Source: Eubacteriales bacterium
Lineage (GTDB): Bacteria > Bacillota > Clostridia > Christensenellales > CAG-138
Reading direction: 5' to 3'
Length of the DNA: 64,000 nucleotides
NCBI GenBank assembly: GCA_021373115.1
Contig: JAJFTI010000002.1
Location: 25,868-89,867, forward strand
Part shown: one piece after another, positions 17,108-39,531 of the stretch
Position numbering within the stretch: position 1 is the first letter of the stretch
Layout: the number at the start of each line of letters is the position of its first letter
The notes under the pieces: generated by a model
What the model was told of the DNA's origin: nothing
Databases searched by the model: none
What the model saw: only the letters and a program-made list of their open reading frames with translations
Program-made: the position numbers and the translations under genes

Positions 17108-17109
17108 CA

Positions 17110-17832: not shown

Positions 17833-17852
17833 CCGGGGAACGGAGAAAGAGA

Positions 17853-18392: not shown

Positions 18393-18406
18393 GGAGGGAT
18401 CAAGGC

Positions 18407-20881: not shown

Positions 20882-22480
20882 TTGGAAAGCGAACAGCCTA
20901 GGTTAAGCCTACGGCACATCTCAAAATCGTACTCCGGCAACCGCGTACTCAGCGACGTTTCGCTGGATGTGCGCGCGGGGGAAATTCACGCGCTGCTCGG
21001 CGAGAACGGCGCGGGGAAATCCACGCTCATGAAAATCCTCATGGGCATGGACGAGATTCGCCAGAGCGGCGGATTCGAAGGCGAGATTTTACTGGACGGT
21101 GAACCGGTGCAGATCGATTCGCCCAAGCGTGCTCACGAGCTGGGCGTATGCATGGTGCATCAGGAACTGATGCTCGTAAACGGCTTTACGGTGGCGGAGA
21201 ATATTCGCGTTGGCCGGGAACCCGTAAAGCGGATCGGCCGCGGGGAACGGGACGCCGCCTGCCTGCCCATCGATTTTTCACGTCTGCGCGAACAAGCCAA
21301 AACCGCGCTGGAGCGGCTGCACGTCGAGCTGGACGGGGATATGCCGATTGCCGAATTGCCGGTAACCCAGATGCAGTTCGTGGAGATTGCACGAGAGGTT
21401 GACCGGCCGGGAATCCGGCTGCTGATACTGGACGAACCGACCGCCGTGCTCAACGACGAGGAAGCCGAATGCCTGCTCGATAGAATGGCGCGCCTCAAGC
21501 AATCGGGACTGAGCATTCTGTTTATTACACACCGCCTTGGAGAGGTGCTGCGCTGCTGCGACCGCATTACGGTTCTGCGGGACGGCGCGGTGGCAGGGCG
21601 CGCCGAGAGCGGGAAAACGAGCGCGGCGGCAATTGCGGAAATGATGATTGGCAAGCGCCTCCTGGCCATTCACACTTCGGAGCGTATTTCGTTTGGCGAA
21701 CCGACGGAGGAGCCCGTTTTACAGCTGAACGGATTCTGGGCGGATCTGCCGGGCGAGCGTGTGGAGCGGCTGGATCTGGAGGTGCGCCGGGGCGAGATTC
21801 TCGGGCTCGGCGGCCTTTCCGGGCAGGGCAAGATCGGATTTGCCAACGGCCTGATGGGCCTCTGCCCGTCCGGCGGCGTTGTCATTCTGGACGGACGGGA
21901 GCTTTCACTTGGGGATGCGGGGAGCGTGCTGCGAGCGGGATTTGGGTTCGTTTCCGAAGACCGCAGGCGCGTTGGCCTTCTTTCCGGCAGCTCGATCGAG
22001 GAAAACATTGCTATCCCCGCCATGCTCAACTTCGGCCGGTTCCTCCGCCGCGTCGGCCCGGTTCAAATGATCGACCGCCGCGCCATGCGGGCAAACGCGC
22101 TGGAATTCATCCATGCGCTCGATATTCGCTGCACCGGGCCGGATCAGCCGGCCGGGATGCTTTCCGGCGGCAATCAGCAGAAGGTCTGCGTCGCGCAGGC
22201 ACTCACGCTCCGCCCGCGTATTCTGCTTGTCAGCGAACCCACGCGCGGCATCGATATCGGCGCAAAGCATTTGCTGCTCAACGTTCTGCTCCGGCTGAAC
22301 CGCGAGCAGGGGATTACCATCGTGTTTACTTCTTCCGAGCTGCAGGAACTTCGCTCCGTCTGCGACCGGATCGCAATTATCTCGCGCGGAAGGGTGGCGG
22401 GTATTCTGCCGCCGGACGCGCCGGAAGCGGAGTTCGGGCTGATGATGAGCGGGCTGGACGTAAAAAGGAGCGGTGTATGA
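20882..22480 (+). CDS. ABC transporter ATP-binding protein, duplicated NBD (CUT2/ribose type)
   Basis: Walker A GENGAGKST, signature LSGGNQQK and a second degenerate NBD. TTG start 20882, 7 nt after GAGG. Confidence 0.9.
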   Translation: MESEQPRLSLRHISKSYSGNRVLSDVSLDVRAGEIHALLGENGAGKSTLMKILMGMDEIRQSGGFEGEILLDGEPVQIDSPKRAHELGVCMVHQELMLVNGFTVAENIRVGREPVKRIGRGERDAACLPIDFSRLREQAKTALERLHVELDGDMPIAELPVTQMQFVEIAREVDRPGIRLLILDEPTAVLNDEEAECLLDRMARLKQSGLSILFITHRLGEVLRCCDRITVLRDGAVAGRAESGKTSAAAIAEMMIGKRLLAIHTSERISFGEPTEEPVLQLNGFWADLPGERVERLDLEVRRGEILGLGGLSGQGKIGFANGLMGLCPSGGVVILDGRELSLGDAGSVLRAGFGFVSEDRRRVGLLSGSSIEENIAIPAMLNFGRFLRRVGPVQMIDRRAMRANALEFIHALDIRCTGPDQPAGMLSGGNQQKVCVAQALTLRPRILLVSEPTRGIDIGAKHLLLNVLLRLNREQGITIVFTSSELQELRSVCDRIAIISRGRVAGILPPDAPEAEFGLMMSGLDVKRSGV

Positions 22481-23514
22481 AACAATCGCTGATTGCGCGC
22501 GTGGGTCTGCCAAGGATCATCATCTTCGCGTTTCTGCTGCTCCTGCTCGCGCTGTGCGTTCTGACGAAGCAGGATCTCGGTGCGATTACGGGGGATGTGA
22601 TCGTCCGCTTCGGTATGAACGGCATCCTTGCGCTGTCGATGTTCCCCTCCATCCTTTGCGGCGCAGGTCTGAACTTCGGCGTGCCCATCGGGGTAATCGC
22701 GGGGCTCGTTGGCGGCCTTCTGAGCGTTGAATTCGGCATGACCGGGTTTGGCGGGGTTGCCGCGGCGTGCCTGTTTTCCGTACCGATTGCGGTCGCGTTC
22801 GGGTATCTTTACGGGAAACTTCTTAATACCGTGAAAGGCAACGAAATCGTGGTTGGCAACTATATCAGCTACGCGGCGGTTTCGCTCATGTGCATTTTCT
22901 GGCTGCTTATGCCGTTTACGAACCCGGCCATCACCTGGCCGATCCGCGGCACCGGCGTGCGCACGACCGTTACGCTGGAAGGGTTTTACGACGGTCTGCT
23001 CAACGACACGCTTTCGTTTACCGTGCTGGGGGTCAAGATTCCAACGCTGTTGCTGGCGGCTTTTGCGCTCGCCTGCGTTTTGATTTGGCTTTTTTCACGC
23101 AGTAAAACCGGTCTTTTGATGAAAGCGGCGGGCGAAAATCCAATGTACGCTGCCGCTGCGGGCATCTCCGTGGACGCTATGCGTTTAAAGGGGATAATTC
23201 TCTCCACCTTGCTTGCCGCGGTCGGAATCGTGATCTATTCCCAATCCTACGGGTTTTATCAGCTTTACAACGCGCCGCTCAATATGGCGTTTGCGCCCGT
23301 CGCGGCGGTGCTTCTCGGAGGAGCGACCACGCGGACGGTGAAAATACGCCACGTGATCATCGGCACGTTCCTGTTTCAGGCGATCATCACGGTGGCCATG
23401 CCCGTTGCCAACCAGCTTGCGCCGGACGGCGGGCTTGCGGAGGTTGCGCGGATTATTGTTTCCAACGGAATCATTCTCTACGCGCTGATGCAGAGCGGAG
23501 GTGAGCGCAAGTGA
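22477..23514 (+). CDS. ABC transporter permease
   Basis: Polytopic membrane protein. Its start overlaps the ATPase stop (ATGA). Belongs with the 20882 ATPase. Confidence 0.8.
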   Translation: MKQSLIARVGLPRIIIFAFLLLLLALCVLTKQDLGAITGDVIVRFGMNGILALSMFPSILCGAGLNFGVPIGVIAGLVGGLLSVEFGMTGFGGVAAACLFSVPIAVAFGYLYGKLLNTVKGNEIVVGNYISYAAVSLMCIFWLLMPFTNPAITWPIRGTGVRTTVTLEGFYDGLLNDTLSFTVLGVKIPTLLLAAFALACVLIWLFSRSKTGLLMKAAGENPMYAAAAGISVDAMRLKGIILSTLLAAVGIVIYSQSYGFYQLYNAPLNMAFAPVAAVLLGGATTRTVKIRHVIIGTFLFQAIITVAMPVANQLAPDGGLAEVARIIVSNGIILYALMQSGGERK

Positions 23515-24755
23515 CGAAGTGGAAACGTACGCTCAAAAAAAACGCCGTGCCGCTCTTGTTCATCAGCCTCTCGGCGTTCGCGTTTCTCTATTCGGGCGCG
23601 TCCGGCCCGGTTGTGGTTTCAGATGTCGTCTCCCGTTTTGCGCGGAACGCGATTCTGGTGCTCTCGCTGATCTTTCCCGTGCTGGCGGGTATGGGACTGA
23701 ATTTCGGCATTGCCATTGGAGCAATGGCGGGCCAGATTGCGCTGTTTTTCGTGATGCTGGCGGGAATCACCGGTACGAACGGGCTTTTGGCGGCTGCGCT
23801 GCTTTGCGTACCGCTGGCGGTCGTTTTCGGGTGGCTTTCCTCGCTCGTGCTAAACCGCACGAAAGGACAGGAGATGATCACGTCCATGCTGCTGGCCTTC
23901 TTTGCGTCGGGCGTGTACCAGTTCTTCTTTTTGTATCTGCTGGGCGGCGTAATACCCGTAAACAACCCGGATTTTCTGATGGGCAGCGGAATCGGCGTAC
24001 GGAGCAACCTGGATATGACCGGCATGCAGTACGCACTGGACGATCTGCTGAAAACAGACGTATTCACTTGCCTGCTCGCCACCGCGGCGGGATTCGGCGT
24101 CTGGCTCGTGTATCAGGCTGTGAAGCACAAAAAACAGCCGCTGTATCTGGCGCTGCTTTTCGCACTGGACGCGGCGCTTCTCGCCCTAGGCGTACTCGGC
24201 AAGTTTGGCGGCCTCTGGCCGCAGTATCGCGTGATGGTACAGATTCCGGTGGCAACGCTGCTTGTTGTCGCGTTGGTGGGTTTCGTGATACGATACTTTT
24301 TTTCCACTCGCATGGGGCAGCGTATGCGCGCGGTCGGCAACGACACGACCGCGTCCAGCGCGGTTGGCATCGACGTAAACCGCGTTCGCACGCAGGCAAT
24401 GATTCTCTCCACCCTTGTTGCGGCGCTTGGGCAGATCGTTTACCTGCAAAACATTGGCACCATTGCGGTTTACAGCGCGCATGAGAACGTTGGCATGTTC
24501 TCCGCCGCGGCTCTGCTGGTTGGCGGTGCTTCCGTCTCCGGCGCGACGGTGCCGCAGGCGCTGCTGGGGACGCTGCTGTTCCACCTGCTGTTTAACATTC
24601 TGCCAATTGCCGGACAGAAGCTCTTTGGCAGTCCGGAGATCGGCGAATATTTCCGCGTGTTCATTGCGTACGGCATCATTGCGGTCACGCTTTCGCTCTA
24701 CGCATGGAAAATAACGGCAAAGAGGAACGCGACCCGGGAGAAGAAGCGCAACTAA
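23511..24755 (+). CDS. ABC transporter permease
   Basis: Polytopic membrane protein. GTG 23511 overlaps the previous stop (GTGA) and is preceded by GGAGGTG. The +1-frame ORF 23501..24484 is rejected. Confidence 0.8.
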   Translation: MTKWKRTLKKNAVPLLFISLSAFAFLYSGASGPVVVSDVVSRFARNAILVLSLIFPVLAGMGLNFGIAIGAMAGQIALFFVMLAGITGTNGLLAAALLCVPLAVVFGWLSSLVLNRTKGQEMITSMLLAFFASGVYQFFFLYLLGGVIPVNNPDFLMGSGIGVRSNLDMTGMQYALDDLLKTDVFTCLLATAAGFGVWLVYQAVKHKKQPLYLALLFALDAALLALGVLGKFGGLWPQYRVMVQIPVATLLVVALVGFVIRYFFSTRMGQRMRAVGNDTTASSAVGIDVNRVRTQAMILSTLVAALGQIVYLQNIGTIAVYSAHENVGMFSAAALLVGGASVSGATVPQALLGTLLFHLLFNILPIAGQKLFGSPEIGEYFRVFIAYGIIAVTLSLYAWKITAKRNATREKKRN

Positions 24756-24984: not shown

Positions 24985-25012
24985 TTGACAAAAGCGGCAG
25001 GAGTTTTATAAT
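24985..25012 (+). promoter_or_regulatory. Near-consensus sigma-70 promoter
   Basis: TTGACA (24985-24990), 16 nt, TATAAT (25007-25012). Confidence 0.65.
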
Positions 25013-25017: not shown

Positions 25018-25031
25018 TGTTAACGTTAACA
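25018..25031. promoter_or_regulatory. LacI-type operator, perfect palindrome TGTTAACGTTAACA
   Basis: 14-bp perfect dyad with a central CG, 6 nt after the -10 box and 40 nt before the LacI-family gene start. Confidence 0.65.
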
Positions 25032-25071: not shown

Positions 25072-26112
25072 ATGAAAACGATAAAGAAAGCCGCAAGTAT
25101 CGAGGATGTCGCCCGTTTAGCCGGGGTTTCTGTTATGACGGTCTCCCGCGTAATGAACCGGAGCGTTCATGTCAGCACGATCACGAAAGAAAAAGTTGAG
25201 AATGCGGTAAAGACACTAAACTACCGCCCGAATATGGTCGCAAAGAGCCTTGTGACACAGCGTACGCATATCGTTGCTTATATAACAAACAACATGACGG
25301 ATCTTTTCCACACGGAGGTTGGAAGAGGAATTGAAGAGATCTGTTATAAACGCAATTACATTGTGATCATTTGCGATGCAAACAGCACGCCGCGGCAGAA
25401 AGAATATATCAACATGCTTCTCGACCGGAAGGTTGACGGGGCTATTTTTCATCATACGAACATCAGCAAAGAAGAAATTGAACGTTTAAACGCCGCCGGA
25501 ATACAATGCGTTTTAATCGATAATGAAAACGATTGGGACAACGCTGGCATTGTCAATACGGATAATTTTAACGGCGGATACATGGCAGCGGAGCATCTGA
25601 TCCGGGCGGGACACAGCCGCATAGCTTGCATACACGGAAGGCTCTCAAACGGCGATCCGGATGGAACGAATATCGATGTGGTTCGCACATGGCGGGAACG
25701 CACATCGGGTTTTCTTGCCGGACTGTCCGCCTGCGGGATAAAGCCGGAACGATTGATCGAAAGCGACAGCCGGATGAAGAATGCTCTGCTTACGGCGAAT
25801 CGATTTCTGGACGATATACTCAAAATGCGGCAGCCACCCACGGCGGTGTATTGCGAAAACGATGTGATTGCCCTCAGCGTACTGAGCGAAGCGCTGGAAA
25901 AAAACGTACCTGTGCCGGATCGTCTGGCCATTGTGGGGCATGACGGCATCGAAACGAGCATATCCCTATATCCCCGCGTAACAACGGTCGTCCTGCCGCA
26001 CTATGAGACCGGCATGAAAGCGGCGGATATGCTGATTGATCTTATCGAAAATAAACATGAAATAAACAAGATTGTCCTGAACCCGAAGCTGTTTGTTGGA
26101 AGTACAACCTAA
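25072..26112 (+). CDS. LacI/GalR family transcriptional regulator
   Basis: HTH ASIEDVARLAGVSVMTVSRVMN followed by a sugar-binding-fold domain. Confidence 0.9.
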   Translation: MKTIKKAASIEDVARLAGVSVMTVSRVMNRSVHVSTITKEKVENAVKTLNYRPNMVAKSLVTQRTHIVAYITNNMTDLFHTEVGRGIEEICYKRNYIVIICDANSTPRQKEYINMLLDRKVDGAIFHHTNISKEEIERLNAAGIQCVLIDNENDWDNAGIVNTDNFNGGYMAAEHLIRAGHSRIACIHGRLSNGDPDGTNIDVVRTWRERTSGFLAGLSACGIKPERLIESDSRMKNALLTANRFLDDILKMRQPPTAVYCENDVIALSVLSEALEKNVPVPDRLAIVGHDGIETSISLYPRVTTVVLPHYETGMKAADMLIDLIENKHEINKIVLNPKLFVGSTT

Positions 26113-26133
26113 TGCAGAATACGGAGGAACGCT

Positions 26134-27306
26134 ATGAGACCTATCATATCGGATCAGGAATTTCAAGATCGCGTACAAAAAACGCAGCAGCGGATGCAGG
26201 AAACAGGAATTGATCTATTGCTGGCCTATGGAAACGAAGTTGAGCCACAGTTCCCGCGGTATTATTCCGACTATTGGCCTTCCTTTGAGAGCGCGGGCGT
26301 TCTCATTGCACAGGAAGGCGATCCCGTACTGCTCATTGGACCGGAAAGCATGACCTATGCAGCCGACCGAAGCCGGATTCGGGAGATCCGGCGCTTATCC
26401 TGCTTTCGTGAATCCTCCAACCCGGAATATCCGGGCCACGTGATGGATCGTTTTCGAGACGCAGCGAGGGACTTGATGAACGGGAAACCGTTGAAAAGGC
26501 TTGCGATCGCAGGCTATCAACTGATTCCGCATTTCACCTACGAGGAAATAACACAGAGTCTGGATGACAACGGCCCGTATGAGGTGATCCAGGGCGACGA
26601 TCTTGTCGTGAGCCTGCGAATGATCAAATCGCCCGCGGAAATCGAATGCATGCGGTATGCGGGCAATATAACCGCCAGAACATTCGATCATGTAATTCAA
26701 AACATTCGTCCGGGAATGACCGAATCCCAGGTGAGAGGGCTCGCTCTTGGCAGAATGCATCAACTGGGTGCGGAAAACGAAGCATACCCCACCTGGGTAT
26801 TGGCGGGAGAAGGGGGAAATCAAGCCATCAGCCGGGCGCGGCAGAAGGCGATCGGTGAGAACGAGATGGTACACCTGCAGTTTGGCGCACGGTATGAGGG
26901 CTATGCATCCACGATTGGCCGGCCGGTTATCTTTGGTAAACCGGAGGAGTGGATGCTTGACGCAATCCGCGCCGGCTACGAAGGCTACGAAGCAGTTGCG
27001 GCCGAGCTTTACGCGGGGAATAACGCCGGCAATGTTGCGAATGCATTTTACAACACAATGAAAGCAAACGGTCATCTGGACTGGCTGCTTTATGGCCCGT
27101 GCCATGGAACCGGGCTGATGGAAGGGGAACCGCCCTGGATTGAAAAGAACTCCGATTTTACGCTGAAAGAGAATATGACATTCTGCATATGCCTTTTCAT
27201 GGGAAACCGGAAAGGGTATGGTTTTCGTATCGAGGATAGTTTTCGGGTAGGCAAAGACAAGCCGGAAAGCCTCACAGACTATCCAAAGGAGATATTGTTG
27301 CTGTAG
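26134..27306 (+). CDS. M24-fold (creatinase/prolidase-like) protein with apparently degenerate metal site
   Basis: Creatinase-N-like N-terminal half and a pita-bread C-terminal half (..YEGYASTIGRPV.., ..CHGTGLMEGEPP.., ..FRIEDSF..). See finding on ligand substitutions. Confidence 0.8.
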   Translation: MRPIISDQEFQDRVQKTQQRMQETGIDLLLAYGNEVEPQFPRYYSDYWPSFESAGVLIAQEGDPVLLIGPESMTYAADRSRIREIRRLSCFRESSNPEYPGHVMDRFRDAARDLMNGKPLKRLAIAGYQLIPHFTYEEITQSLDDNGPYEVIQGDDLVVSLRMIKSPAEIECMRYAGNITARTFDHVIQNIRPGMTESQVRGLALGRMHQLGAENEAYPTWVLAGEGGNQAISRARQKAIGENEMVHLQFGARYEGYASTIGRPVIFGKPEEWMLDAIRAGYEGYEAVAAELYAGNNAGNVANAFYNTMKANGHLDWLLYGPCHGTGLMEGEPPWIEKNSDFTLKENMTFCICLFMGNRKGYGFRIEDSFRVGKDKPESLTDYPKEILLL

Positions 27307-27431
27307 CGGCGGCAGTGCGGCGAGGGCGCGTTCCCGATAGGAAACGGAAGGATACGAAGTGCAGGTGGCAAGCAATACACCTGGCTTTTGCCGGATTGAC
27401 AGAAAAACAACTCGGAAATAAAGCGCTTGAA

Positions 27432-27481
27432 CATGGTATTTTCCGAGATATATAAAATTAACGGGAAATACCATGTTTTTA
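27432..27481 (+). terminator. Hairpin plus T-run between the M24 gene and the binding-protein gene
   Basis: CATGGTATTTTCCG / CGGGAAATACCATG (14 bp, one mismatch) with a 16-nt AT-rich loop, followed by TTTTTAT. The loop contains a possible -10 (TATATA) after TTGAAC. Confidence 0.45.
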
Positions 27482-27614
27482 TGGGGTTCCACCAATGAAA
27501 AGAAACCGGGTTCGCGCTATGATAATGGAGCAGGACAGGTTCAGGACACAACAACAAACAGCAAATCCGGTTACGCAATTCTCTTGCAGGTATGGAAAAA
27601 ATTAGGAGGTAAAC

Positions 27615-28982
27615 ATGAAACGGAATAAACTGGCATCCACTCTTCTTGTTTTTCTGGCGCTGGCAATGTGCGCGGGTTGCGCCGTTACCAACAACGGCGC
27701 GGCTACGCCAAACGCAGCATCCGCAGAGCAGCCGGCAGAAGCGGCGGCATCCGCAGTGCCGGCCGATGGAGAGAAGGTTACGCTGCGGGTTGCGTCGCTC
27801 GCCGGCGTGACGACGGACATGTTCAAGCTGGCGAAGGAAGCATTTATTGCCGAACATCCAAATGTAGATATCGAGATCGTTGAATTCGACTCGAGCACCT
27901 ACATGGAAAAAGGGCCTCAGGTATTTGGCGCTGCGGAGAACAATTTTGATGTGGCCTGGTATTACCGGGCGTTCTCCTGGCAGGATATGTGTGACGCGGG
28001 ATACTTTCTCCCTCTGGATGACCTGTACACGAGCGAGGACTGGTTCAGCGCACTTGGTACACCCGTAACCGATCTGTATAAGAACGCCGACGGTCATTAC
28101 TATTCGGTTTGTGAGAGCGTTGTATGGATCGACAACATGTACTATAACAAAGACCTGATGGAGAAATTCGGCTGGTCCGTGCCGACAACATGGGATGAGT
28201 TCGTTGCTTTCTCGGAAGCCGCCCAAAAAGAAGGTCTGATCCCTCTTGCGCAAGCTGGAGGTTCCGGCGCGCAGGAATGGCTGATGGATATCCTGCTGAC
28301 TAGGATGTTTACACCGGAGGAATACCAACTGGCATGCGACCCGACGCAGACGACCCTGCGTTATGACTCCGAACAATGGATCAACGCCTGGAAGGCCGCA
28401 AAAGAGATGCAGGATTCCGGCATGATCGAGCAGGGAGCAAGCGGCGTTAACACGACGGACGCACAGGCTTTGTTCCTGTCGGGCAAAGCGGTAATGATTG
28501 CCGATGGCAGCTGGGCCGGGAATGTACTCCAAAGCACGCTGGATGGCGACGTAAACGGAGGGTTCAAGGTTGGCTATGCGATGATCCCCGCTTACAACGA
28601 TAGCATCGTACCGAAGATTCCCAACTATCCTTGCAACTGCGTAATGGTGCTTTCCACCACCAAGCAGCCCGATCTGGCCAAGAGTTTTGTACAGCTGATC
28701 ATGAGCAAGAGCCAGCAGGAAGCACTGGCGAAGGCCGCCATCAACAATCCCGCCAGAACCGATGTTTCCGCGGAAAGCGTTTCCGCCCTCGGCGAACTGA
28801 CGGTCAGCATGTATCAGGACATGGTTAAGTATGGCGTGGTGCCTATGTGGAGCGTGCTCATGCCGCAGGAGATGCTGGACGCCATGAACACCGCCTGCGA
28901 CGGTGTGCTGACCGGTGTGATGACGCCGGACGAAGCGGGCGCATATATGCAGAAGAAATACGAAGAAGTATTAGCAAACTAA
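27615..28982 (+). CDS. Sugar ABC transporter substrate-binding lipoprotein (CUT1 type)
   Basis: AGGAGG RBS, signal peptide and lipobox LALAMCAGC, Ala/Pro-rich linker, family-1 SBP-like body. Confidence 0.9.
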   Translation: MKRNKLASTLLVFLALAMCAGCAVTNNGAATPNAASAEQPAEAAASAVPADGEKVTLRVASLAGVTTDMFKLAKEAFIAEHPNVDIEIVEFDSSTYMEKGPQVFGAAENNFDVAWYYRAFSWQDMCDAGYFLPLDDLYTSEDWFSALGTPVTDLYKNADGHYYSVCESVVWIDNMYYNKDLMEKFGWSVPTTWDEFVAFSEAAQKEGLIPLAQAGGSGAQEWLMDILLTRMFTPEEYQLACDPTQTTLRYDSEQWINAWKAAKEMQDSGMIEQGASGVNTTDAQALFLSGKAVMIADGSWAGNVLQSTLDGDVNGGFKVGYAMIPAYNDSIVPKIPNYPCNCVMVLSTTKQPDLAKSFVQLIMSKSQQEALAKAAINNPARTDVSAESVSALGELTVSMYQDMVKYGVVPMWSVLMPQEMLDAMNTACDGVLTGVMTPDEAGAYMQKKYEEVLAN

Positions 28983-29018
28983 CGGTTTACACGTTCGATT
29001 GAAGCAAAGCAGCCGCAT

Positions 29019-29050
29019 ATTGCGGGAAGATCCATTCATCTTCCCGCAAT
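29019..29050 (+). promoter_or_regulatory. Intercistronic stem-loop after the binding-protein gene
   Basis: Perfect 13-bp stem ATTGCGGGAAGAT/ATCTTCCCGCAAT with a 6-nt loop and no U-tract. Confidence 0.55.
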
Positions 29051-29071
29051 CGGCTTGCGATGGGAGGATGC

Positions 29072-29968
29072 ATGGTAGTTAAGCGAAAGAGACTCCTGCA
29101 GGAATGGGGCATAGGATATGCCTTTGTGCTGCCGGCCGTGGCGCTGGTGGGCGTTTTCCTCGTCTATCCGTTGATTCGTTCAATCTATTTAAGCTTTTTT
29201 AGCTGGAATGGCATCTCTGCACCGAAGTTTATCGGGCTTGTAAACTATGTAAAATTGTTTCATGGCAAAGAAATCTGGAACGCATTCCTTCATACGATAC
29301 TATATACGGTGTGTTCCGTAACGGGAACCGTGTTGATCGGCCTGCTGATTGCGCTTGCAATCGAGCGCCGAATCCGCGGGTGGAGATTCTATAAATTTGC
29401 CTTGTATATTTCCGTTATGCTGCCGGTTACGGTGGTAGCCGTTCTTTTTGCGAAATTTTTCGAGCCGAATTACGGCCTGTTTAATGCGCTACTGCGCTCG
29501 ATAGGTCTGGAACGTTTCACGCAAAACTGGCTGGGAGACCCGAAAACGGCGCTTGGCAGCATTATAGCCGTAAGCGTGTGGCAATATAGCGGGTTCACCA
29601 TGCTGCTGCTTCTGGCCGCTATGGAAAGCATCGATCCGGCGGTTCACGAGGCGGCAACGATCGATGGAATTAACGAGCGACAAAGGATTTTCTACATTAC
29701 ATTACCCTGTATTAAACGGCCTTTGTTTGTGGTTGTTATGCTGCAGATTATCTTCTCGTTTAAAACCTTTGACATATTCTGGATTATGACCGGCGGCGGT
29801 CCCGCGCTGAAGACGGAAGTACTCACCACCATGCTTTATCGGACGGCTTTCAGCTATGGCAAGTACGGATTGGCTTCCGCCATTTCGGTTGTAATGATCC
29901 TGATTATTTCGCTTATTTCGCTGTATTACCTTAAAAAATCAAAACTTGGTGAACAGGTTGTAGAGTAG
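29072..29968 (+). CDS. Sugar ABC transporter permease (MalF-like)
   Basis: EAA loop HEAATIDGINERQRIFYITLPCIKRP. ATG 29072 follows GGGAGG (ATG 29060 possible). Confidence 0.85.
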   Translation: MVVKRKRLLQEWGIGYAFVLPAVALVGVFLVYPLIRSIYLSFFSWNGISAPKFIGLVNYVKLFHGKEIWNAFLHTILYTVCSVTGTVLIGLLIALAIERRIRGWRFYKFALYISVMLPVTVVAVLFAKFFEPNYGLFNALLRSIGLERFTQNWLGDPKTALGSIIAVSVWQYSGFTMLLLLAAMESIDPAVHEAATIDGINERQRIFYITLPCIKRPLFVVVMLQIIFSFKTFDIFWIMTGGGPALKTEVLTTMLYRTAFSYGKYGLASAISVVMILIISLISLYYLKKSKLGEQVVE

Positions 29969-29978
29969 GAGCATTTTG

Positions 29979-30821
29979 ATGAAAGAGAAATTGAGAATCT
30001 CTAGAGTGCTCATCCAGCTTCTATTGGTCATCTGGTCGCTGGTTCAGCTGTACCCCGTGATCGTTATGTTCATGGCGTCCTTGAAAACGGATTCCCAGAT
30101 TACGCTGGATTTATTCGGGCTGCCAAAGCCGATCGACCTCCAGAATTTTCCGGAGGTCTGGTTTGGCAAGGACATCGGTTTAACCTTGGGCACGCCCGTT
30201 CTCAACAGCGTGGTCATTACCGCGCTGACGCTGCTGCTGTTGTGCTTTGGGGCGGCACTTTGCGGATATGCCTTGTCCAGGTTCCGGTTTCCGGGGAATA
30301 AGGTGGTTTACTATTTACTGGTGAGCCTTATCGCTATTCCCATGCAGGCGCTGATTCTTCCAATCTATCTGTTTGCCAAAGATCTCGGGGCGCTGAATAG
30401 CATTTGGTTTGTAATTCCAATGCTGGCGGCCTTCCAGATACCCTTTTCCGTGATCATAATGAAAACCAATTTTGAGTCTTTGCCGCATGTGGTGGAGGAA
30501 GCGGCCTATATCGACGGATGCAGCAAATTCAAGACGTTCTGGCATATTGTTATGCCGATGTCCAGGGGATCGATTGCAACGATCATCATTGTCAACCTTG
30601 TGTCGATATGGGGTGAATTCATGTTCTCCTCAACGATATTAATGCTGCCCAATGTAAGGACGCTGCCAACGGCGGTAAGCCTGTTTACCACAAACATGTA
30701 TAATTCCACCTTGGGACCGTTGTTTGCGGGACTGTCCATAGCGAGCTTCCCTTTGATCATCGTCTACTTTATCTTTCAGAAGCAGATTGTAAAAGGCATG
30801 GCCGTAGGATCCGTCAAATAG
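29979..30821 (+). CDS. Sugar ABC transporter permease (MalG-like)
   Basis: EAA loop EEAAYIDGCSKFKTFWHIVMPMSRG and C-terminal FQKQIVKGMAVGSVK. AGGAG lies 7 nt before ATG 29979. Confidence 0.9.
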   Translation: MKEKLRISRVLIQLLLVIWSLVQLYPVIVMFMASLKTDSQITLDLFGLPKPIDLQNFPEVWFGKDIGLTLGTPVLNSVVITALTLLLLCFGAALCGYALSRFRFPGNKVVYYLLVSLIAIPMQALILPIYLFAKDLGALNSIWFVIPMLAAFQIPFSVIIMKTNFESLPHVVEEAAYIDGCSKFKTFWHIVMPMSRGSIATIIIVNLVSIWGEFMFSSTILMLPNVRTLPTAVSLFTTNMYNSTLGPLFAGLSIASFPLIIVYFIFQKQIVKGMAVGSVK

Positions 30822-30940
30822 TTAACGCATATGCCAAAACGCGGTCGGCCTCACAACAGGCCTGTTATCGCATGCCACAGCACCAGGACGAGGCATGGGT
30901 ACCTCGCCAATTCGAATAGGGAAGCGAAGGGATTACTTTC

Positions 30941-31978
30941 ATGGCAATTCAAACCGTACTCGGCAAAGTTAATAAAAACGAATTGGGGATTATAATGCCC
31001 CATGAGCATATTTTTATCGATCTCACCGCCTTTTATACGGAGCGGGTTATTCCGGGCTGCAGCAATCCGGGCGGGGAAAAGGTTACCATAAGGAACCTTG
31101 GCATTCTTTCCCGGGATCCTTATGCGCTGCGGGACGATCTTGTGATTGACGATTTTAATGCGCAGTGTGACGAGCTGATAGAGTTAAGAAATGCGGGCTG
31201 CTCAACAATCGTTGATGCATCCAGCATCGGCCTGGGACGGGATCCCAGAATGCTGAAAAGTATTGCGCAAGCAACCGGACTCAACGTTGTTATGGGTTCG
31301 GGATACTATGTGGACGCAACGCACAGCGACGCGTTGCGAGAAATGACGGTGGAACAAATCGCGGGGAACATTCTTCGGGATATCCGGGATGGCGCGGACG
31401 GCACAAACATCAAACCCGGCGTAATCGGGGAGATTGGCATCAGCGAGGATTTTACCCCGTCGGAGAAACGCGTGCTCCGGGCAGCGGGCATTGCGCAGAG
31501 GGAAACGGGCCTCGGCATTCTGCTGCATATCAATCCTTGGACGACATTCGGACTGGAAGCGGTGGACATTCTGTTTTCAGAAGGTGTGGCTCCGGACCGG
31601 ATTGCCGTTTGCCACTCCGATGTGGAGAACCGAATCGACTACATGGAATCGCTGCTTCAAAAAGGCGTGTATGTGGAGTTTGATAATTTTGGGAAAGAGT
31701 ATTACGTAGCAAAGTCGTCGCGACACAAAGGATACGGGACTTTCGTTCACGATACGGACCGGGTGGATTTGCTTGCGAAATTGCTATCGAAGGGATATGA
31801 GAAACAACTGCTGTTGAGCTGCGATGTATGCTTGAAAATTCTCCTGCATCGATACGGCGGGTGGGGATATGATCATGTGCTGACCAACATTATACCCATG
31901 CTGAAGGAAGAAGGCGTCCTGGAAAGCACAATTGAACAGATGATACGCTGGAATCCGGCGGATTTTCTCGAACGATAA
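30941..31978 (+). CDS. Phosphotriesterase-homology protein (Php/PTER family amidohydrolase-fold hydrolase)
   Basis: MPHEHIFIDL (HxH), GVIGEIG (bridging Glu as in E. coli Php), LLHINPW, VCHSD and LLLSCDV give a complete binuclear-site pattern by eye. Confidence 0.85.
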   Translation: MAIQTVLGKVNKNELGIIMPHEHIFIDLTAFYTERVIPGCSNPGGEKVTIRNLGILSRDPYALRDDLVIDDFNAQCDELIELRNAGCSTIVDASSIGLGRDPRMLKSIAQATGLNVVMGSGYYVDATHSDALREMTVEQIAGNILRDIRDGADGTNIKPGVIGEIGISEDFTPSEKRVLRAAGIAQRETGLGILLHINPWTTFGLEAVDILFSEGVAPDRIAVCHSDVENRIDYMESLLQKGVYVEFDNFGKEYYVAKSSRHKGYGTFVHDTDRVDLLAKLLSKGYEKQLLLSCDVCLKILLHRYGGWGYDHVLTNIIPMLKEEGVLESTIEQMIRWNPADFLER

Positions 31979-32005
31979 AAAACAAGGACAGGGGAGTTGC
32001 TCTAT

Positions 32006-32806
32006 ATGAAAACCATTCGGGATTGTTTCTGGCTTTGGGGCCAGACGGAAGGAACCCACCATGCCACGGGGAATAAATTTTGTCTGCCCGGTAAAAATTG
32101 CATGACACCCATCGAGGGGTGTGAATACTACGATATTCCCAATATATGCCGGGTTGTTTCAACCGGCCTGCCCGTTCCACCGTTCGATCAGGAAGCCGCG
32201 AAACTGGATGGGTTGGATCAGGTGGTTTGGTCAATACAGGGCTGCCTGGATTCCGCGCGATATCAGAATGGCACGCTCGACGACCTTGAAGAAGTGCTTC
32301 GAATTGCCGGGCTGCACCCAAACGTTATAGGCGGTGTGATGGACGACTTTTTGAATCGCCGTGACAGTTTTCCGCCGGAACGCCTGCAGCGGATCCGAGA
32401 CAGCCTGCACTGTCGCTTGAACAGGGCGCTGCAGCTCTGGCTTGTCGTGTATACGCATGAACTGTCAACGGAGATCAAACCGTATCTGGACCTTGCAGAC
32501 ACCTTAACGACTTGGACCTGGTGGGCAAAGGATTTACCTTTACTTGAGGAGAATTACGCGAAAATCAGAAGTCTTTGCGGAATGGATAAGCCGATCTACG
32601 CGGGCTGTTATATGTGGGATTACGGCGGATGCGCTCCGATTTCGAGGGATAGCATGCTGATACAGCTGGAAACTTATCGAGGATGGCTCCGGGAAAAGAA
32701 GATTGAAGGGATTATCCTCTGCTCCAACTGCATTGCGGATTTGGGACTTGAGGCGGCGGACGTGACGAAGGAATGGCTGAAACAACACGGTAATGAACAG
32801 GTTTAG
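32006..32806 (+). CDS. Hypothetical cytoplasmic protein, no family recognised
   Basis: Last gene of the operon. GGGGAG lies 9 nt before ATG 32006. Composition is host-like and no family motif was recognised. Confidence 0.6.
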   Translation: MKTIRDCFWLWGQTEGTHHATGNKFCLPGKNCMTPIEGCEYYDIPNICRVVSTGLPVPPFDQEAAKLDGLDQVVWSIQGCLDSARYQNGTLDDLEEVLRIAGLHPNVIGGVMDDFLNRRDSFPPERLQRIRDSLHCRLNRALQLWLVVYTHELSTEIKPYLDLADTLTTWTWWAKDLPLLEENYAKIRSLCGMDKPIYAGCYMWDYGGCAPISRDSMLIQLETYRGWLREKKIEGIILCSNCIADLGLEAADVTKEWLKQHGNEQV

Positions 32807-32828: not shown

Positions 32829-32851
32829 CGGCCGGGTTTTACGCCCGGCCG
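32829..32851. terminator. Bidirectional rho-independent terminator
   Basis: CGGCCGGG/CCCGGCCG stem flanked by AAAAA upstream and TTTG..TTTTTTT downstream, between convergent genes. Confidence 0.7.
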
Positions 32852-32857: not shown

Positions 32858-33799
32858 TCAGGTTTTTTTCTCGTCATACAGGATCGTTTCGTTGCTTGCC
32901 CGCTTTCGATACTCGCCAGGCAAAAGATTCATGCTCTTTTTAAATACGGTGTAGAAAAATTTAACGTCGTCAAAGCCGCAGGCGGAGGAAATATCGGCAA
33001 CGGTTCGGTTGGTTGTGGATAGCAGGTGGCAAGCATGCTCAACACGAACCTTTTGAATCATGGAAGTAACGGTCATACCGGTTACGTCGTGGAAGAGCCG
33101 GCTGAAATAGTCCTGACACAGATAAACGCGATTTGCTAAATTCTGCACGGATATGCGCTTATCAAAATTATCCCGAATATATTCCAGGGCAAAACTAATC
33201 GCTTTGTCATTTCGTGAAATCTCCGCCTTTTTTGAACTGGAATCGGTTTTCCGGAAAATTGTGATAATCAGTTCCATCAGGTATGCTCGGATAATCTCCA
33301 GATATCCTTTTTCCTTGCCCCGGTGCTCCAGATAAATCTTGTTAAACAGTTCGCCAAATTTATTATACGAATTTCCGGAAACGCTGAGATCCGGAGTGAA
33401 CTGATTCTTTTCGTGAAACAGCGAATAGAACAGAAAGGAGGAATTCAGCGCTTCCAGCGTATCGCTTCCGGTGATGGACTGGTCGAGAAAATCCGGCGTA
33501 AACATTAAGTCGTAAGCGACAAAGGGCTCGCTGGCGCGGTCGTCGGAAAAAAACGCGTGGGGCGTGTCGAAATTAATGATGAACAGGTCGCCTTTTTTTG
33601 CGGGATAGCGCTTATCGAGTACCACGTGGGTGGCGGTTCCGGAAATAATATAGACCATTTCGATAAAAAGGTGCTTGTGTATAACGCCGATATAGTCCGG
33701 GAATTCATTGGACATATGGATATATACTTTTTCATTTGGACGAAAAAAATCATCCCGGGTAAATACGCAGATGGAATCTGCGTTTCCGGTATTCTTCAT
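32858..33799 (-). CDS. AraC family transcriptional regulator (cupin sensor + AraC HTH)
   Basis: C-terminal double-HTH region (..ISVQNLANRVYLCQDYFSRLFHDVTGMTVTSMIQKVRVEHACHLL..DISSACGFDDVKFFYTVFKK..). AAGGAG lies 6 nt before ATG 33799. Confidence 0.9.
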   Translation of the reverse strand: MKNTGNADSICVFTRDDFFRPNEKVYIHMSNEFPDYIGVIHKHLFIEMVYIISGTATHVVLDKRYPAKKGDLFIINFDTPHAFFSDDRASEPFVAYDLMFTPDFLDQSITGSDTLEALNSSFLFYSLFHEKNQFTPDLSVSGNSYNKFGELFNKIYLEHRGKEKGYLEIIRAYLMELIITIFRKTDSSSKKAEISRNDKAISFALEYIRDNFDKRISVQNLANRVYLCQDYFSRLFHDVTGMTVTSMIQKVRVEHACHLLSTTNRTVADISSACGFDDVKFFYTVFKKSMNLLPGEYRKRASNETILYDEKKT

Positions 33800-34220
33800 A
33801 ATGATCTCCTTGAATTGTAGTGGCAAGACAGTTTCAACTCATTATATACTAGACTGCGTAAAATAAAAATAGGAAGAAAAATCGCACGGGAATCCCAAGT
33901 GCGAATTTAAGGCTTCGGTATGTATTTGAGTGCCGCAACCGTTGGATTGCGTGTTTCTGAGGATAAAACCAGATAAAGACTTTACAATGTAAAACTCTTT
34001 GACACAATATATGAAACGCAAGTGTTGACACAGTATTCGATCAAATACTACAATCTAATGTAACCGCAACCGAGACTTGTCGGGTGGTCAGCCGCTCTTT
34101 AAACCGTGGTTCCGATCACTGTAAAAAAGATTGATTTACAAATATTACTTTTATATTATAAACTGGGGAAAGATCACAAAGTGTGATACTATACCTGAAA
34201 AGAACATTAGGAGCCGATAA

Positions 34221-35798
34221 ATGTCAAGAGCAGAGAAGAGAGACGGTATTGTTCGGATTCTGTTATTAGTACTAGCTTTTTTAATCACACTCACGTTCTT
34301 TTACCTTGTTGTTGCGGGGGTGCTGACAACGTGCCGACTGGATCCAAACGCATATGTCAATGAAAATATCCTCTTTGAAAAGAATTCATTCGTGCTAAAC
34401 CTGCTTGCGATCCTGCTTCTTCTTGCGGTTTCCACTCTGGTCATAAAGAACATCGTTAATCGATTGAATGATCGGAAGGTTTTCATTTGGTCCTCAATTT
34501 TTCTGATTCTCACGGCTTCATTGAGCATATTATGGGTTGCTGCTGTACAATCAATTCCTGCAACGGATTCGGAGTCGGTGATAAATGCTGCGACTTTCGC
34601 TGCTAAAAACGATTACACATTTTTATCTATGTCATCTCAATATTTCCATATGGTACCCCATCAATTAGGGATGGTTTTTCTGTACGAAGGGTTGATTCGA
34701 ATATTTGGGTAATATGCATATGGCGCGATGCTGGGGCTGAACATCATTGCGCTGGTGATGGGATATGCAGCAATAATACTCATTGCAAGAACGGTGTACC
34801 GAGACAACCGTATTACGCTTGTAACGGCGATCCTTTTGGCGTTGTTTGCACAAGCGATTTTCTTCACCAGCTTTATTTATAGTAATATATTCGCTTTTGC
34901 ATGCATTTCCTGGGCGTGCCTGTTTTTAATTCGATGGATCAATCATGATGGAATTATTCCTATCATCTGGATTGTCTTGCTTTGCGCGGTTGCAGTATTG
35001 GTTAAGCCAAATAGCTGGATTGCAATAATTGCCATCAGTATCATTCTCTTCTTTAGCATGCTGCGTCAACCTAAAATTGCGAAGGTAATCTGTATCATTG
35101 GGTGCTCCGTTTTGTTGAGCGGGGGAGTTCAACGTCAATACGAATTGCGCTCGGGGATTTCAATTGGTACGGGAACACCAAAAACCGCATGGCTCGTTAT
35201 GGGCTTGACCGAATCTCCGCCGGATGCCCCAGGTTGGTTCAATGGTTATGCACATAGTGTATTGCAAGACAACGGAATGGACATTGAGCAAGCTGGCAGA
35301 GTGATTCGAAACGATTTGGATAAAAGATTTAAGGAACTGGAAAACGATCCAGCAAAAGCTTTGTCTTTTTTCCATCGGAAAGTTTTGAGCCAATGGAATG
35401 AGCCCTCTTTTGAAAGCGTCTGGGTCAGCAAGGTGAAGGCGCACAAAACTGCGACTCCTTGGTTTGTTAATAGTATTTACAATAGTACCGGCGGCAAAAT
35501 AATGGATGCTTATTTTGAGCAGTATGTCCAATTGATCTATGTTGCGTTCGTTCTTGGTTCTCTTTTTCATATTATACGTTCTCATAAAAAGGAAACTCGC
35601 TTTGTAAACGAGCAAGCGGACAACACGGTCGAATATGACGAAATAGCATTGCTGTTGCCATTGATTGTTTTTGGCGGGGTTGCTTATCATCTGCTATTCG
35701 AAGCAAAATCGCAATACGCCCTGCTGTATATTCCATGGCTGATTCCATCTGCAGCATCTGGTCTCGTAAGGTTTTCGGATTTACTTCACCGGAAGTAA
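34221..35798 (+). pseudogene. Polytopic membrane protein, GT-C (ArnT/PMT/GtrII-like) glycosyltransferase candidate, split by one in-frame TAA
   Basis: Track ORFs 34221..34712 and 34728..35798 are in the same frame, separated only by TAA 34710-34712 (..IRIFG*YAYGAMLGLNII..). Together they give a roughly 520-aa multi-TM protein. AGGAG RBS before 34221. Confidence 0.55.
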
Positions 35799-35964
35799 CC
35801 GACCCAAGTGGCTTTTTATGGGATGCGTGAAATCGAAATAACATAATTTCAGTTAAGATATATTTTGCTTATGGAGAATCTATCTAGAGCAGAGCATAAA
35901 AAAAGGGATGCCGCAACGAAGGATTTCACTGAACCTGTAAAGTAGAGTAGAGAAAAAATCTAAC

Positions 35965-36002
35965 AAAGCCCTGATCCGAGTGAAATTGGACAGGGCTTTT
36001 TT
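35965..36002. terminator. Rho-independent terminator
   Basis: AAAGCCCTG/CAGGGCTTT stem with a 17-nt loop, followed by TTTTTT. Confidence 0.6.
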
Positions 36003-36168: not shown

Positions 36169-36906
36169 TCAGATATCGAGACGATATCCTTGGAACATAT
36201 GCTCCGAAACAAGCTTGGTGCCGACGCTAAAGGAAGCGCTTACAGCGCCTAAGGCTTCTGCGGGATTTTTGTCTTCGATTGCCTGAACCAAACGTTCCAG
36301 ATATCCCAAGCATTCGGTGCGGTCCATGTTGGTATAGTAGCATTCGTTTACCTGGGAAAGAATATTGATAAACGAGTAGAAAATCAACGGAGTAATAACG
36401 TTGCAGGACGCCACGCATACCGTGTGATGCAACTCAAAGTCGATGGCCGCCATGGCGCGTGGATCGGTTTCCAGCTTTAACTGATTCAGAAGGCTCTTCA
36501 ATGCCTCCACATCGTCATCCGAACGATTCAAGGCGGCCTGTTCGGCGGCTTCCTTTTCGATCATCGTACGCATATCCGTCAGGGACCGAAACATCGTCGG
36601 GTTGAGATGGCCGCCGTTATAGTTGATGATAGACAACAGCGTATCCAGCTTGCCGATTCGTTTATAATCCGCAACAAAAGTACCCTTTCGCGGAACGACA
36701 CATAAAAAGCCTTTGGCTTCCATATCGGCTAATCCGCCGTTCACGATTGCGCGGCTGACCTTCATCTTTTTTGAAAGCTCACGTTCGGTGGGCAACTTTT
36801 CGCCTACGGACAGCTTTCCCGAGATGATGAGCGCTTCAATTTCTTTGACAAACAGTTCTCTTACCCTCGGAACATGCAATTCTGAGAGCTCTTCTTCGAT
36901 CCTCAT
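36169..36906 (-). CDS. GntR family transcriptional regulator (FadR/FCD subfamily)
   Basis: Winged HTH ..GKLSVGEKLPTERELSKKMKVSRAIVNGGLADMEAKGFL.. plus an all-helical FCD-like C-terminal domain. GGAGG RBS. Confidence 0.9.
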   Translation of the reverse strand: MRIEEELSELHVPRVRELFVKEIEALIISGKLSVGEKLPTERELSKKMKVSRAIVNGGLADMEAKGFLCVVPRKGTFVADYKRIGKLDTLLSIINYNGGHLNPTMFRSLTDMRTMIEKEAAEQAALNRSDDDVEALKSLLNQLKLETDPRAMAAIDFELHHTVCVASCNVITPLIFYSFINILSQVNECYYTNMDRTECLGYLERLVQAIEDKNPAEALGAVSASFSVGTKLVSEHMFQGYRLDI

Positions 36907-37000
36907 AATATAGTGCCTCCGCCTCGATTAACAGCGCGAATGGAATATCCTTTCATTATTTTAGCATGAATAATCGTCGAAACGCAACAGACCGTGGACA

Positions 37001-37012
37001 GTGGTATACCAC
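37001..37012. promoter_or_regulatory. Candidate GntR operator 1, perfect palindrome GTGGTATACCAC
   Basis: 12-bp perfect dyad of the GT-N-AC type expected for FadR-like GntR regulators. Sits just upstream of the putative gntR promoter (TTGCGT, 18 nt, TAAAAT on the minus strand, 36958-36987). Confidence 0.6.
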
Positions 37013-37082
37013 GGAGCAACACGCTGTTCGAGTAATCGTACTAATACCTGCAATATAAAGAAAAAGGGCAAAAAAATCTTTT

Positions 37083-37092
37083 TGGTATACCA
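37083..37092. promoter_or_regulatory. Candidate GntR operator 2, TGGTATACCA
   Basis: Second exact copy of the 10-bp core (TGGTATACCAC shared), 22 nt upstream of the -35 box of the plus-strand operon. Confidence 0.55.
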
Positions 37093-37113
37093 CAAACCAT
37101 GAGCATTTTTTTG

Positions 37114-37142
37114 TTGACAACATGTGACCGGCATTGTAAGAT
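37114..37142 (+). promoter_or_regulatory. Promoter of the methyltransferase operon
   Basis: TTGACA, 17 nt, TAAGAT. Leaves a leader of about 240 nt before ATG 37391. Confidence 0.5.
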
Positions 37143-37390
37143 GATACCGATTCGAGAAAACACTCACAATCGGACATCAATCAAGTTCTCACACGAAGTT
37201 CTCGTTCAAAGCCACGCCAATAATATTTGCCAAAATACACGGATTACACTGCGTTCAAAACTAATACGGATTCCTTTGCGAAACAATGCTTAAAGACGCT
37301 TCAGCGAAACGCTGAGAGGCAAGGTCTGGTCGAAACCATTTGGGATAAAGGCTACAGCCCTGCTTGATAACGATATTTGGAGGATTATGT

Positions 37391-38740: not shown

Positions 38741-38821
38741 CGGATTCATCCAACGTACAAAAGATAACTTTTCGAAATGAATCAGGCAGGGGCCTATAAT
38801 AACTTAAGGAGCGAAAATGGT

Positions 38822-39520: not shown

Positions 39521-39531
39521 GGAGAGAGACA

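Follow-up and report, generated by a model that had tools for sequence, protein, structure and literature searches.

Here, we describe a catabolic operon at positions 25072-32806 of a 64,000-nucleotide stretch of contig JAJFTI010000002.1 from an Eubacteriales bacterium (assembly GCA_021373115.1), the whole of which is referred to as the window. The operon combines a LacI-family repressor, an M24 peptidase-fold protein depleted of its metal ligands (M24b), an importer of the CUT1 sugar type, a binuclear-metal hydrolase of the phosphotriesterase (PTE) family and a 266-aa protein without recognisable family (UNK), and its end is met by a convergent gene for an AraC-family regulator. It is much more certain that this locus is a genuine sugar-conjugate catabolic unit than that any specific model of its chemistry applies. 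As to the latter, we tentatively favour, at slightly less than an even chance, an operon doubly regulated by LacI and AraC with which a sugar conjugate would be taken up and then broken down by hydrolysis alone, in that a glycoside would be cut first and C-N bonds would be hydrolysed thereafter.

The M24b, PTE and UNK proteins

M24b possesses both the pita-bread domain (PF00557) and the N-terminal domain (PF01321) of creatinases and prolidases. Its AlphaFold2 (AF2) model (predicted local distance difference test score, pLDDT, of 91.9) resembles prolidases, DoeA and creatinases alike, with template modelling (TM) scores of 0.77-0.83 (0.83 to 2zsg). In an alignment with the prolidase 3q6d of Bacillus anthracis, the metal ligands D, D, H, E and E correspond to Q249, T260, H324, C353 and E367 of M24b, and the conserved active-site histidine to I232. 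Three of the five metal ligands are gone, and the protein thus falls short of the five dinuclear-metal ligands and active-site His of an M24 metallopeptidase, as an earlier note on this DNA had suspected. Given this ligand loss, M24b cannot be a dinuclear metallopeptidase, and a canonical prolidase or aminopeptidase role was rejected on the same evidence. Both Asp ligands are likewise absent in all M24 paralogues. The subfamily comprises 2355 database proteins at E<1e-20, many of them 55-72% identical, with invariant motifs across both domains (YWPSFE, FRESSxPxYPG and QAISR) and, usually, a C-terminal MEGEPPW. Its best full-length NCBIfam match is DoeA (residues 6-388), at 81 bits compared with an equivalog cut-off of 613 (TIGR02993). 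Creatinase was absent from the 39 Protein Data Bank (PDB) matches of M24b at E<=1e-3, the relation being one of fold similarity only, at 16% identity. In a plasmid collection, the M24 proteins found were all of the DoeA or Xaa-Pro type, with about 25% identity to M24b, and no relative of UNK was present.

The PTE-family protein (PF02126, 243 bits at a cut-off of 22.4) has kept all six metal ligands (H21, H23, E164, H196, H225 and D295), and its motifs HEH (21-23), GEIG (E164), LLH (H196), VCH (H225) and SCD (D295) align with those of 3k2g. Its relatives in the PDB are 3k2g (Rsp3690; 1.5e-52), 3rhg (Pmi1525; 1.4e-51) and 9efa (1.1e-47), the chain of the last being deposited as 'phosphotriesterase-related protein'. 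The window protein shares its Pfam family and its long-N-terminal clade with Rsp3690, Pmi1525, PTER (9efa) and E. coli Php (1bf6), and the set of metal-ligand motifs is identical in all of them; however, none of these relatives is known from a CUT1, M24 or UNK context. Rsp3690 and Pmi1525, its closest solved relatives, are promiscuous carboxylate esterases. The NCBIfam equivalog cut-offs were missed for Php (182 vs 486), the phospho-furanose lactonase (65 vs 630) and organophosphate hydrolase (OPH; 100 vs 500). Mammalian PTER is reported to hydrolyse N-acetyltaurine (Wei et al. 2024, as cited in PMC13445479).

The earlier note had found no recognisable family for the 266-aa protein, and this stands: UNK has no Pfam or NCBIfam match, its predicted structure is a TIM barrel, and a fold search retrieved only generic barrels. 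The AF2 model, built from an alignment of 42 homologues (pLDDT 95.4), shows eight beta/alpha units forming an eight-stranded barrel. Foldseek against the PDB yielded TM scores of 0.5-0.6 at 9-13% identity, led by glycoside hydrolase (GH) family 18 chitinases and endo-beta-N-acetylglucosaminidases, BT_0435, Cwp19 and SleL. The invariant residues D113, D114, Y149, D165, W170, Y202 and D245 are located at or next to strand ends, D113-D114 immediately behind strand 4; they are accompanied by numerous conserved Trp and Tyr residues, and the barrel mouth is rich in aromatic residues. As modelled, this layout would be the usual one for a carbohydrate-binding TIM-barrel active site. Neither a Pfam or CAZy model nor a solved GH, by sequence, places UNK in a known GH family. 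A Pfam scan of the 42 members at E<=5 gave no recurrent enzyme family and a faint GH85 match in a single member, the weak matches common to several members being zf-RING_6 (seven) and EF-hand_12 (six); a PDB profile search with the UNK alignment gave nothing better than E 0.05; and hhalign comparison to the neighbouring GHL6 and DUF4838 families revealed no relationship (probability <=0.2%). UNK has in common with the members of clan GH-K (GH18, GH85), with BT_0435 and with Cwp19 the (beta/alpha)8 barrel, the acidic residues that immediately follow strand 4 and the abundance of aromatic side chains on the C-terminal face. Unlike the clan GH-K barrels, it lacks the DxxDxDxE motif and any Pfam match, and the TM scores remain low.

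UNK homologues are found fused to GH43, GH28, CBM9, F5/8-type-C, Peptidase_C26, beta-lactamase-type, PDZ and 3-keto-disaccharide-hydrolase domains, and many homologues with a length of about 305-313 aa have an RRxFLK-like twin-arginine signal peptide (set P0096, P0121, P0130, P0147, P0158 and P0102). Genes in their vicinity encode GH163/GH185-type DUF4838, GHL6, NagA-like, GH123-like, GH78 and sulfatase proteins, as well as esterase types, namely a glucuronoyl-esterase-like and a dienelactone-hydrolase-like protein. DUF4838 is the Pfam domain common to GH163 and GH185 (PMC10570127). The fusions to glycan-active domains, the exported forms and the glycan-related neighbours argue for an action of UNK on glycans and, in combination with the layout of the modelled fold, suggest that UNK may be a glycosidase-like enzyme. 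As a separate observation, P0102 has its F5/8-type-C domain inserted within the barrel.

Conservation of the gene neighbourhood

The UNK family counts 83 close database homologues and 332 places in GTDB species genomes, and it forms 1037 clusters at 50% identity (E<=1e-3). Its hosts are Clostridia, Lentisphaerae/Victivallales, Kiritimatiellia, Verrucomicrobiota, Planctomycetota and one Bacteroidota metagenome-assembled genome (MAG). We surveyed 82 non-redundant UNK-centred loci by tblastn and by clustering of all neighbours. The former detected M24 in 29 loci, ASRT (PF07100) in 13 and PTE in 11, and the latter Amidohydro_2 in 14, DUF4838 in 13, GFO/IDH/MocA in 8, GHL6 in 7 and NagA-like proteins in 5. 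In Clostridia, the genes are ordered AraC / ASRT-PTE-M24-UNK(-UNK). In the Planctomycetes-Verrucomicrobia-Chlamydiae (PVC) group, the order is either AraC / M24-Amidohydro_2-ASRT-UNK, with hosts in Lentisphaerae, Verrucomicrobiota, Kiritimatiellia and Planctomycetota, or AraC / M24-UNK-Amidohydro_2-UNK, and the M24 proteins of this group bear the M24b motifs. The clostridial and PVC arrangements are two versions of one module. Synteny of PTE-M24-UNK is seen in Clostridia in 11 of the 82 loci. The PTE, M24b and UNK genes directly adjoin one another in no fewer than 15 further loci of different lineages, and the trio of Php-type, M24-like and family-less protein singled out by the earlier note is syntenic in many other genomes. 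Beside one of the clostridial modules, on the 355-kb Joint Genome Institute contig of locus L001, a second, analogous unit of M24, creatininase-family, GHL6, LacI and MFS genes (positions 1-5382) lies directly upstream of the AraC/ASRT/PTE/M24/UNK/UNK genes.

The same trio does not, on the other hand, constitute the core of the system. In 50 M24b-centred loci of at least 5 kb from metagenome contigs, the commoner arrangement consists of LacI, a ribose-type CUT2 ABC importer, M24a, M24b, sometimes M24c, and ASRT. CUT2 ABC permeases occur in 35 of the 50 loci, ASRT and PTE in 16 each, an ArgE/DapE-type M20 protein in 5 and RbsD in 3, and M24a paralogues amount to 21 copies. UNK is present in five, always in the order PTE>M24b>UNK. 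PTE accompanies M24b in CUT2 clusters without UNK, too, and in the one pair that was compared, the PTE of locus L089 is about 50% identical to that of the window. Two human-gut metagenome contigs (L158 and L159; proteins P0385 and P0387) carry LacI, a CUT2 ABC importer, M24a, M24b and an MFS transporter, a cluster type also found in a human-gut Blautia sp. (WP_317364127.1, on a 3.69-Mb contig); in a related human-gut type (L163, L164 and L170), RbsD and an ArgE/DapE-family M20 protein stand in place of PTE.

What stays constant across these contexts is M24b together with one metal-dependent hydrolase, which can come from any of four unrelated families. The metal-hydrolase slot is interchangeable between PTE, Amidohydro_2, ArgE/DapE-type M20 and creatininase-family proteins and is often accompanied by ASRT and metal-free M24 paralogues. 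The core hence reads M24b and a metal hydrolase, with or without ASRT and usually with CUT2, and UNK and the CUT1 oligosaccharide importer are an optional, upstream accessory layer, which the window carries. A search of the whole window found no ASRT, M24a, M24c, Amidohydro_2, RbsD or cluster-type M20 encoded there; ASRT and the M24 paralogues were either lost from its locus or never present in it. The window version, in which every enzyme is encoded once and is joined by a single binding protein and two regulators, is compact enough to be a good entry point for experimental work.

That ASRT genes occur on their own beside ABC transporters for monosaccharides has been noted before (De Souza, Iyer and Aravind 2009; PMC2739507), and the M24b clusters found here are of this ASRT/TM1070-type 'ASRAH' sugar-operon kind. 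They differ in that the text of that paper names no M24, peptidase or amidohydrolase partner (0 occurrences), and the window in turn lacks ASRT. Our literature search found no published account of the cluster, the module or its function. That the earlier note could place the combination in no known pathway agrees with the profile searches, in which all NCBIfam equivalog scores fell far below their cut-offs; the cluster is coherent yet maps to no curated pathway.

Models of function and their rivals

Metal-free M24 enzymes of known function, i.e. creatinase and DoeA, hydrolyse amidine C-N bonds, and each of them acts in tandem with a metal amidohydrolase, creatininase in one case and the deacetylase DoeB in the other. 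As in the ectoine pair DoeA/EutD and DoeB/EutE, a two-domain M24 protein of the creatinase/prolidase fold would be paired here with a separate metal-dependent deacylase, and solved DoeA superimposes on the M24b model with TM scores of 0.77-0.80. However, M24b is about 20-25% identical to DoeA and misses its cut-off by a wide margin (81 of 613 bits), the transporters and regulators found with M24b are of the sugar type (CUT1/CUT2, LacI, AraC), the putative deacylases belong to other families, and UNK and ASRT have no counterpart in the DoeA/DoeB system. The creatininase/creatinase pathway, too, runs from a metal-dependent cyclic amidohydrolase to a metal-free M24 amidinohydrolase, as would be the case in our proposal. 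Creatinases fit the M24b model with TM scores of 0.79-0.83, and L001 has a creatininase-family gene beside an M24 gene and a GH-like barrel. Yet the context in the window is one of carbohydrate uptake, and neither sarcosine oxidase nor urease is linked. Since all equivalog cut-offs fail, the locus is a member of neither system.

In the model that we favour, the CUT1 importer, driven by an ATPase whose gene lies elsewhere, would bring in a small oligosaccharide or glycoside containing a modified sugar X, and the cytoplasmic, glycosidase-like UNK would free X. The binuclear-metal PTE protein and the metal-independent M24b would then strip an N-linked modification by two C-N (or ester) hydrolyses. 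These might follow the logic of DoeA/DoeB or creatininase/creatinase, with one ring-opening or amidine/amide hydrolysis and one deacylation, and the products, an ordinary sugar and a small acid or amine, would enter housekeeping metabolism. In genomes with CUT2 importers, X might be taken up directly. Kinases, aldolases and isomerases do not recur in the loci, and mutarotase-type genes (RbsD, aldose epimerase) occur in some of them, which suggests an ordinary sugar as end product. An amidino- or guanidino-substituted sugar, as put forward in the earlier note, is possible as substrate.

The earlier note had also offered a sugar lactone or ester, in which case PTE would be a lactonase or esterase on a sugar lactone or acylated sugar and M24b an accessory that is not an amidohydrolase. 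This we consider unlikely but keep as a rival. PTE and its PVC replacement Amidohydro_2 both contain lactonases, as is familiar from these families, Rsp3690 and Pmi1525 are promiscuous carboxylate esterases, and the glucuronoyl-esterase-like and dienelactone-hydrolase-like neighbours of UNK would fit as well. What tells against it is the exchange of the PTE slot. M20 enzymes of the ArgE/DapE type and creatininase-family enzymes cleave C-N bonds, not lactones, and their presence in place of PTE in other M24b clusters favours a deacylase or cyclic-amide chemistry over a sugar lactone or ester. Across the four interchangeable families, amide or cyclic-amide hydrolysis appears to be the common denominator, PTER for its part being an N-acyl hydrolase, with only PTE and Amidohydro_2 also including lactonases. 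Moreover, no lactone-making sugar dehydrogenase is a constant partner (GFO/IDH/MocA in only 8 of the 82 loci), and the score against the phospho-furanose lactonase model stayed low, as given above.

A different substrate class, amino-sugar glycopeptides or cell-wall fragments, is suggested by the binding protein, whose nearest solved relative binds chitin oligosaccharides and which matches NgcE weakly. Salvage of peptidoglycan disaccharides, spore-cortex muramic delta-lactam or GlcNAc-Asn-type N-glycan remnants would cast UNK as an N-acetylhexosamine- or muramidase-like glycosidase and PTE as a deacetylase or lactamase, and M24b would cleave the amino-acid, lactyl or lactam part. The best folds for UNK, i.e. 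GH18 proteins including SleL, the peptidoglycan hydrolase Cwp19 and the one faint GH85 match, would agree with this, as would its NagA-like, GH163/GH185-type and GH123-like neighbours, its fusions to Peptidase_C26 and beta-lactamase-type domains, and the reported fusion of ASRAH domains to MurNAc-L-Ala amidases (PMC2739507). Nonetheless, we regard such salvage as rather improbable: the linked genes include no MurQ-type etherase, sugar kinase, NagB or glycosylasparaginase, M24b cannot be a canonical metallopeptidase, most M24b clusters have ribose-type CUT2 importers with RbsD, and other fusions and neighbours of UNK (GH28, GH43, GH78, sulfatase) point to pectin, rhamnose and sulfated glycans. 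Alternatively, the operon might be two independent units side by side by chance, a LacI-M24b remnant of a CUT2-type cluster and an AraC-controlled CUT1-PTE-UNK operon for a different substrate. LacI and M24b are indeed usual in CUT2 clusters, AraC is the usual partner of UNK, and M24b and the binding-protein gene are separated by a gap of 308 bp in which repeats and a promoter-like site are found. This is nevertheless very unlikely, given the adjacency of PTE, M24b and UNK in the other loci counted above, the company of PTE and M24b in CUT2 clusters without UNK, and the co-directional arrangement of all genes up to one terminator.

Several points weigh against the glycosidase and C-N hydrolase model itself. 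None of the enzymes has a characterised orthologue, every NCBIfam equivalog score being far below its cut-off, and the relatives all stem from MAGs or metagenomes. The fold matches of UNK, with TM scores of only 0.5-0.6, include luciferase-like monooxygenases and aldolases, and a canonical GH motif was not recognised in it. M24b keeps only H324, E332 and E367 of the usual catalytic set and might serve in binding or as a scaffold instead of catalysing a reaction. Lactonases within PTE and Amidohydro_2 leave lactone chemistry possible. Finally, the gap with repeats of its own means that the lacI-M24b half and the transporter-PTE-UNK half may be separately controlled.

A more far-reaching and, in our estimation, distinctly unlikely proposal is that M24b, the interchangeable metal deacylase or cyclic amidohydrolase, ASRT and, in the window, UNK make up an unrecognised pathway that detoxifies or salvages sugars with a cyclic amide, amidine or ureido modification and is widespread in gut and anaerobe communities. 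Candidate substrates would be muramic delta-lactam from the spore cortex, N-glycosyl amides or ureides, and imidazoline or oxazoline amino sugars. If this were true, M24b would be the first C-N hydrolase of the pita-bread fold with a carbohydrate substrate. Either way, three sizeable protein groups without assigned function (the UNK barrel, the metal-free M24b with its paralogues and the ASRT-like proteins) occur together as a tightly conserved module in bacteria that are abundant in guts and digesters, human-gut Blautia among them. Identification of the substrate would add a catabolic route that is now mislabelled 'Xaa-Pro aminopeptidase' and 'phosphotriesterase', would probably add a CAZy family, and would provide a testable case for the old puzzle of peptidase-like genes in sugar-uptake operons.

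Transport, regulation and surrounding genes

The ORF list together with Pfam and NCBIfam scans gave seven ORFs on the plus strand, followed by one convergent ORF (Table 1), and thereby confirmed the gene-by-gene description of the earlier note, including the CUT1-type importer, the LacI gene with a perfect palindrome at the head of the operon and the convergent AraC gene at its end. In the deposited gene call, the MalF/UgpA-type permease starts at window position 29072, and the AraC regulator has 313 aa.

Table 1. Features of the operon and of the region downstream of it (window positions)
Feature	Position	Strand	Remarks
sigma-70-type promoter, TTGACA-16-TATAAT	24985-25012	+	consensus 12/12
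Predicted LacI-type operator, TGTTAACGTTAACA	25018-25031		perfect 14-bp palindrome; central CG; 6 bp past promoter
LacI-family repressor	25072-26112	+	PF00356 plus Peripla_BP_1/3/4
M24b, metal-ligand-deficient creatinase/prolidase-fold protein	26134-27306	+	PF00557 (116 bits), PF01321
Inverted repeat, 16-nt arms AACATGGTATTTTCCG / CGGGAAATACCATGTT	27430-27445 and 27462-27477		94% complementary; 16-nt spacer
Direct repeat GGGTTCnnnCnATGA	27484-27501 and 27508-27525		24-nt spacing; second copy overlaps weak -10-like TATGAT
CUT1-type extracellular solute-binding protein	27615-28982	+	SBP_bac_1, SBP_bac_8
ABC permease, MalF/UgpA type	29060-29968	+	PF00528 (BPD_transp_1); best NCBIfam GlcT/UgpA/MalF
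ABC permease, MalG/UgpE type	29976-30821	+	PF00528 (BPD_transp_1); best NCBIfam GlcU/UgpE/MalG
PTE-family binuclear-metal hydrolase	30941-31978	+	Rsp3690/Pmi1525/PTER clade; PF02126 (243 bits)
UNK, unannotated TIM-barrel family member	32006-32806	+	266 aa from ATG; AF2 model; no family match
Bidirectional terminator hairpin	32829-32851		between UNK and AraC stop codons; GC-rich, 8 GC pairs; flanked by AAAAAG and T-runs
AraC-family regulator	32858-33826	-	PF12833, PF00165, AraC_binding
163-aa ORF	34221-34712		no family; inside low-GC region
356-aa membrane-protein-like ORF	34728-35798		weak PMT_2 glycosyltransferase match; inside low-GC region
URO-D-like methyltransferase	37364-38740		corrinoid methyltransferase cluster
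B12-binding protein	38777-39520		corrinoid methyltransferase cluster
MtmB-family ORF	about 39532-40977		corrinoid methyltransferase cluster
CobW	41069-42208		corrinoid methyltransferase cluster

The importer comprises an SBP_bac_1/8 protein and two BPD_transp_1 permeases of the MalFG type, as expected for CUT1. The nearest solved relative of the binding protein is the chitin-oligosaccharide binder NagB2 (7eho, E 1.8e-20), and its match to the NgcE/CPR_0540 NCBIfam model is weak (72 bits, cut-off 400). No MalK/MsmX-type ATPase was found in the locus, and the ATPase-like matches in the window, only at about 20.9 kb and 42.5 kb and ~26% identical, belong to other transporters. In the CUT1 family, a shared ATPase encoded elsewhere is usual. 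The NgcEFG and NagB2 (chitobiose) importers share the organisation of the importer genes described here, with one SBP_bac_1 protein, two MalFG-type permeases, LacI control and an operon without ATPase gene, whereas the binding proteins themselves are only weakly similar, as the scores above indicate.

The repressor scored below every NCBIfam equivalog cut-off; its N-terminal helix-turn-helix and its periplasmic-binding-protein fold place it in the LacI family, and the palindrome at the promoter would be its operator. The palindrome TGTTAACGTTAACA is the sole match in the 64 kb at <=2 mismatches, with 0.11 expected by chance, and similar sites with one or two mismatches are present in some related loci, part of them with LacI proteins 41-46% identical. 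As to the second regulator, the AraC of the window shares 56% identity with its orthologue encoded divergently from ASRT-PTE-M24-UNK-UNK in L001, and this identity to the regulator of the clostridial module marks it as the module's own regulator rather than a bystander. AraC-type genes adjoin UNK in 38 of the 82 mapped UNK-centred loci. The repeats at 27430-27525, within the gap between M24b and the binding-protein gene, may form an internal control region with an operator for AraC or another regulator, to go by their sequence. They were not found in related loci, and consequently no regulator can be assigned to them.

Two neighbouring gene groups were considered as parts of the cluster and rejected. 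Directly upstream, at 20882-24755, a CUT2-type ABC ATPase and two BPD_transp_2 permeases are encoded, which we judge to be a separate unit as they lack an adjoining binding-protein gene; they are also set apart by a terminator-like site at 24842 and by their position behind a block for a 2-oxoacid:ferredoxin oxidoreductase and an ADP-forming acyl-CoA synthetase (15944-20515). The M20, aminotransferase and MFS genes at 11815-15658 were dismissed, too, the M20 protein of the window not matching the cluster-type M20. Downstream, the region at 34000-36000 has a GC content of 0.415, compared with about 0.55 across most of the window, and may be a foreign insertion. It is followed by a corrinoid methyltransferase cluster (36169-42208), which includes a GntR/FCD regulator on the minus strand and whose MtmB-family ORF contains no in-frame stop and is therefore apparently a non-pyrrolysine homologue.

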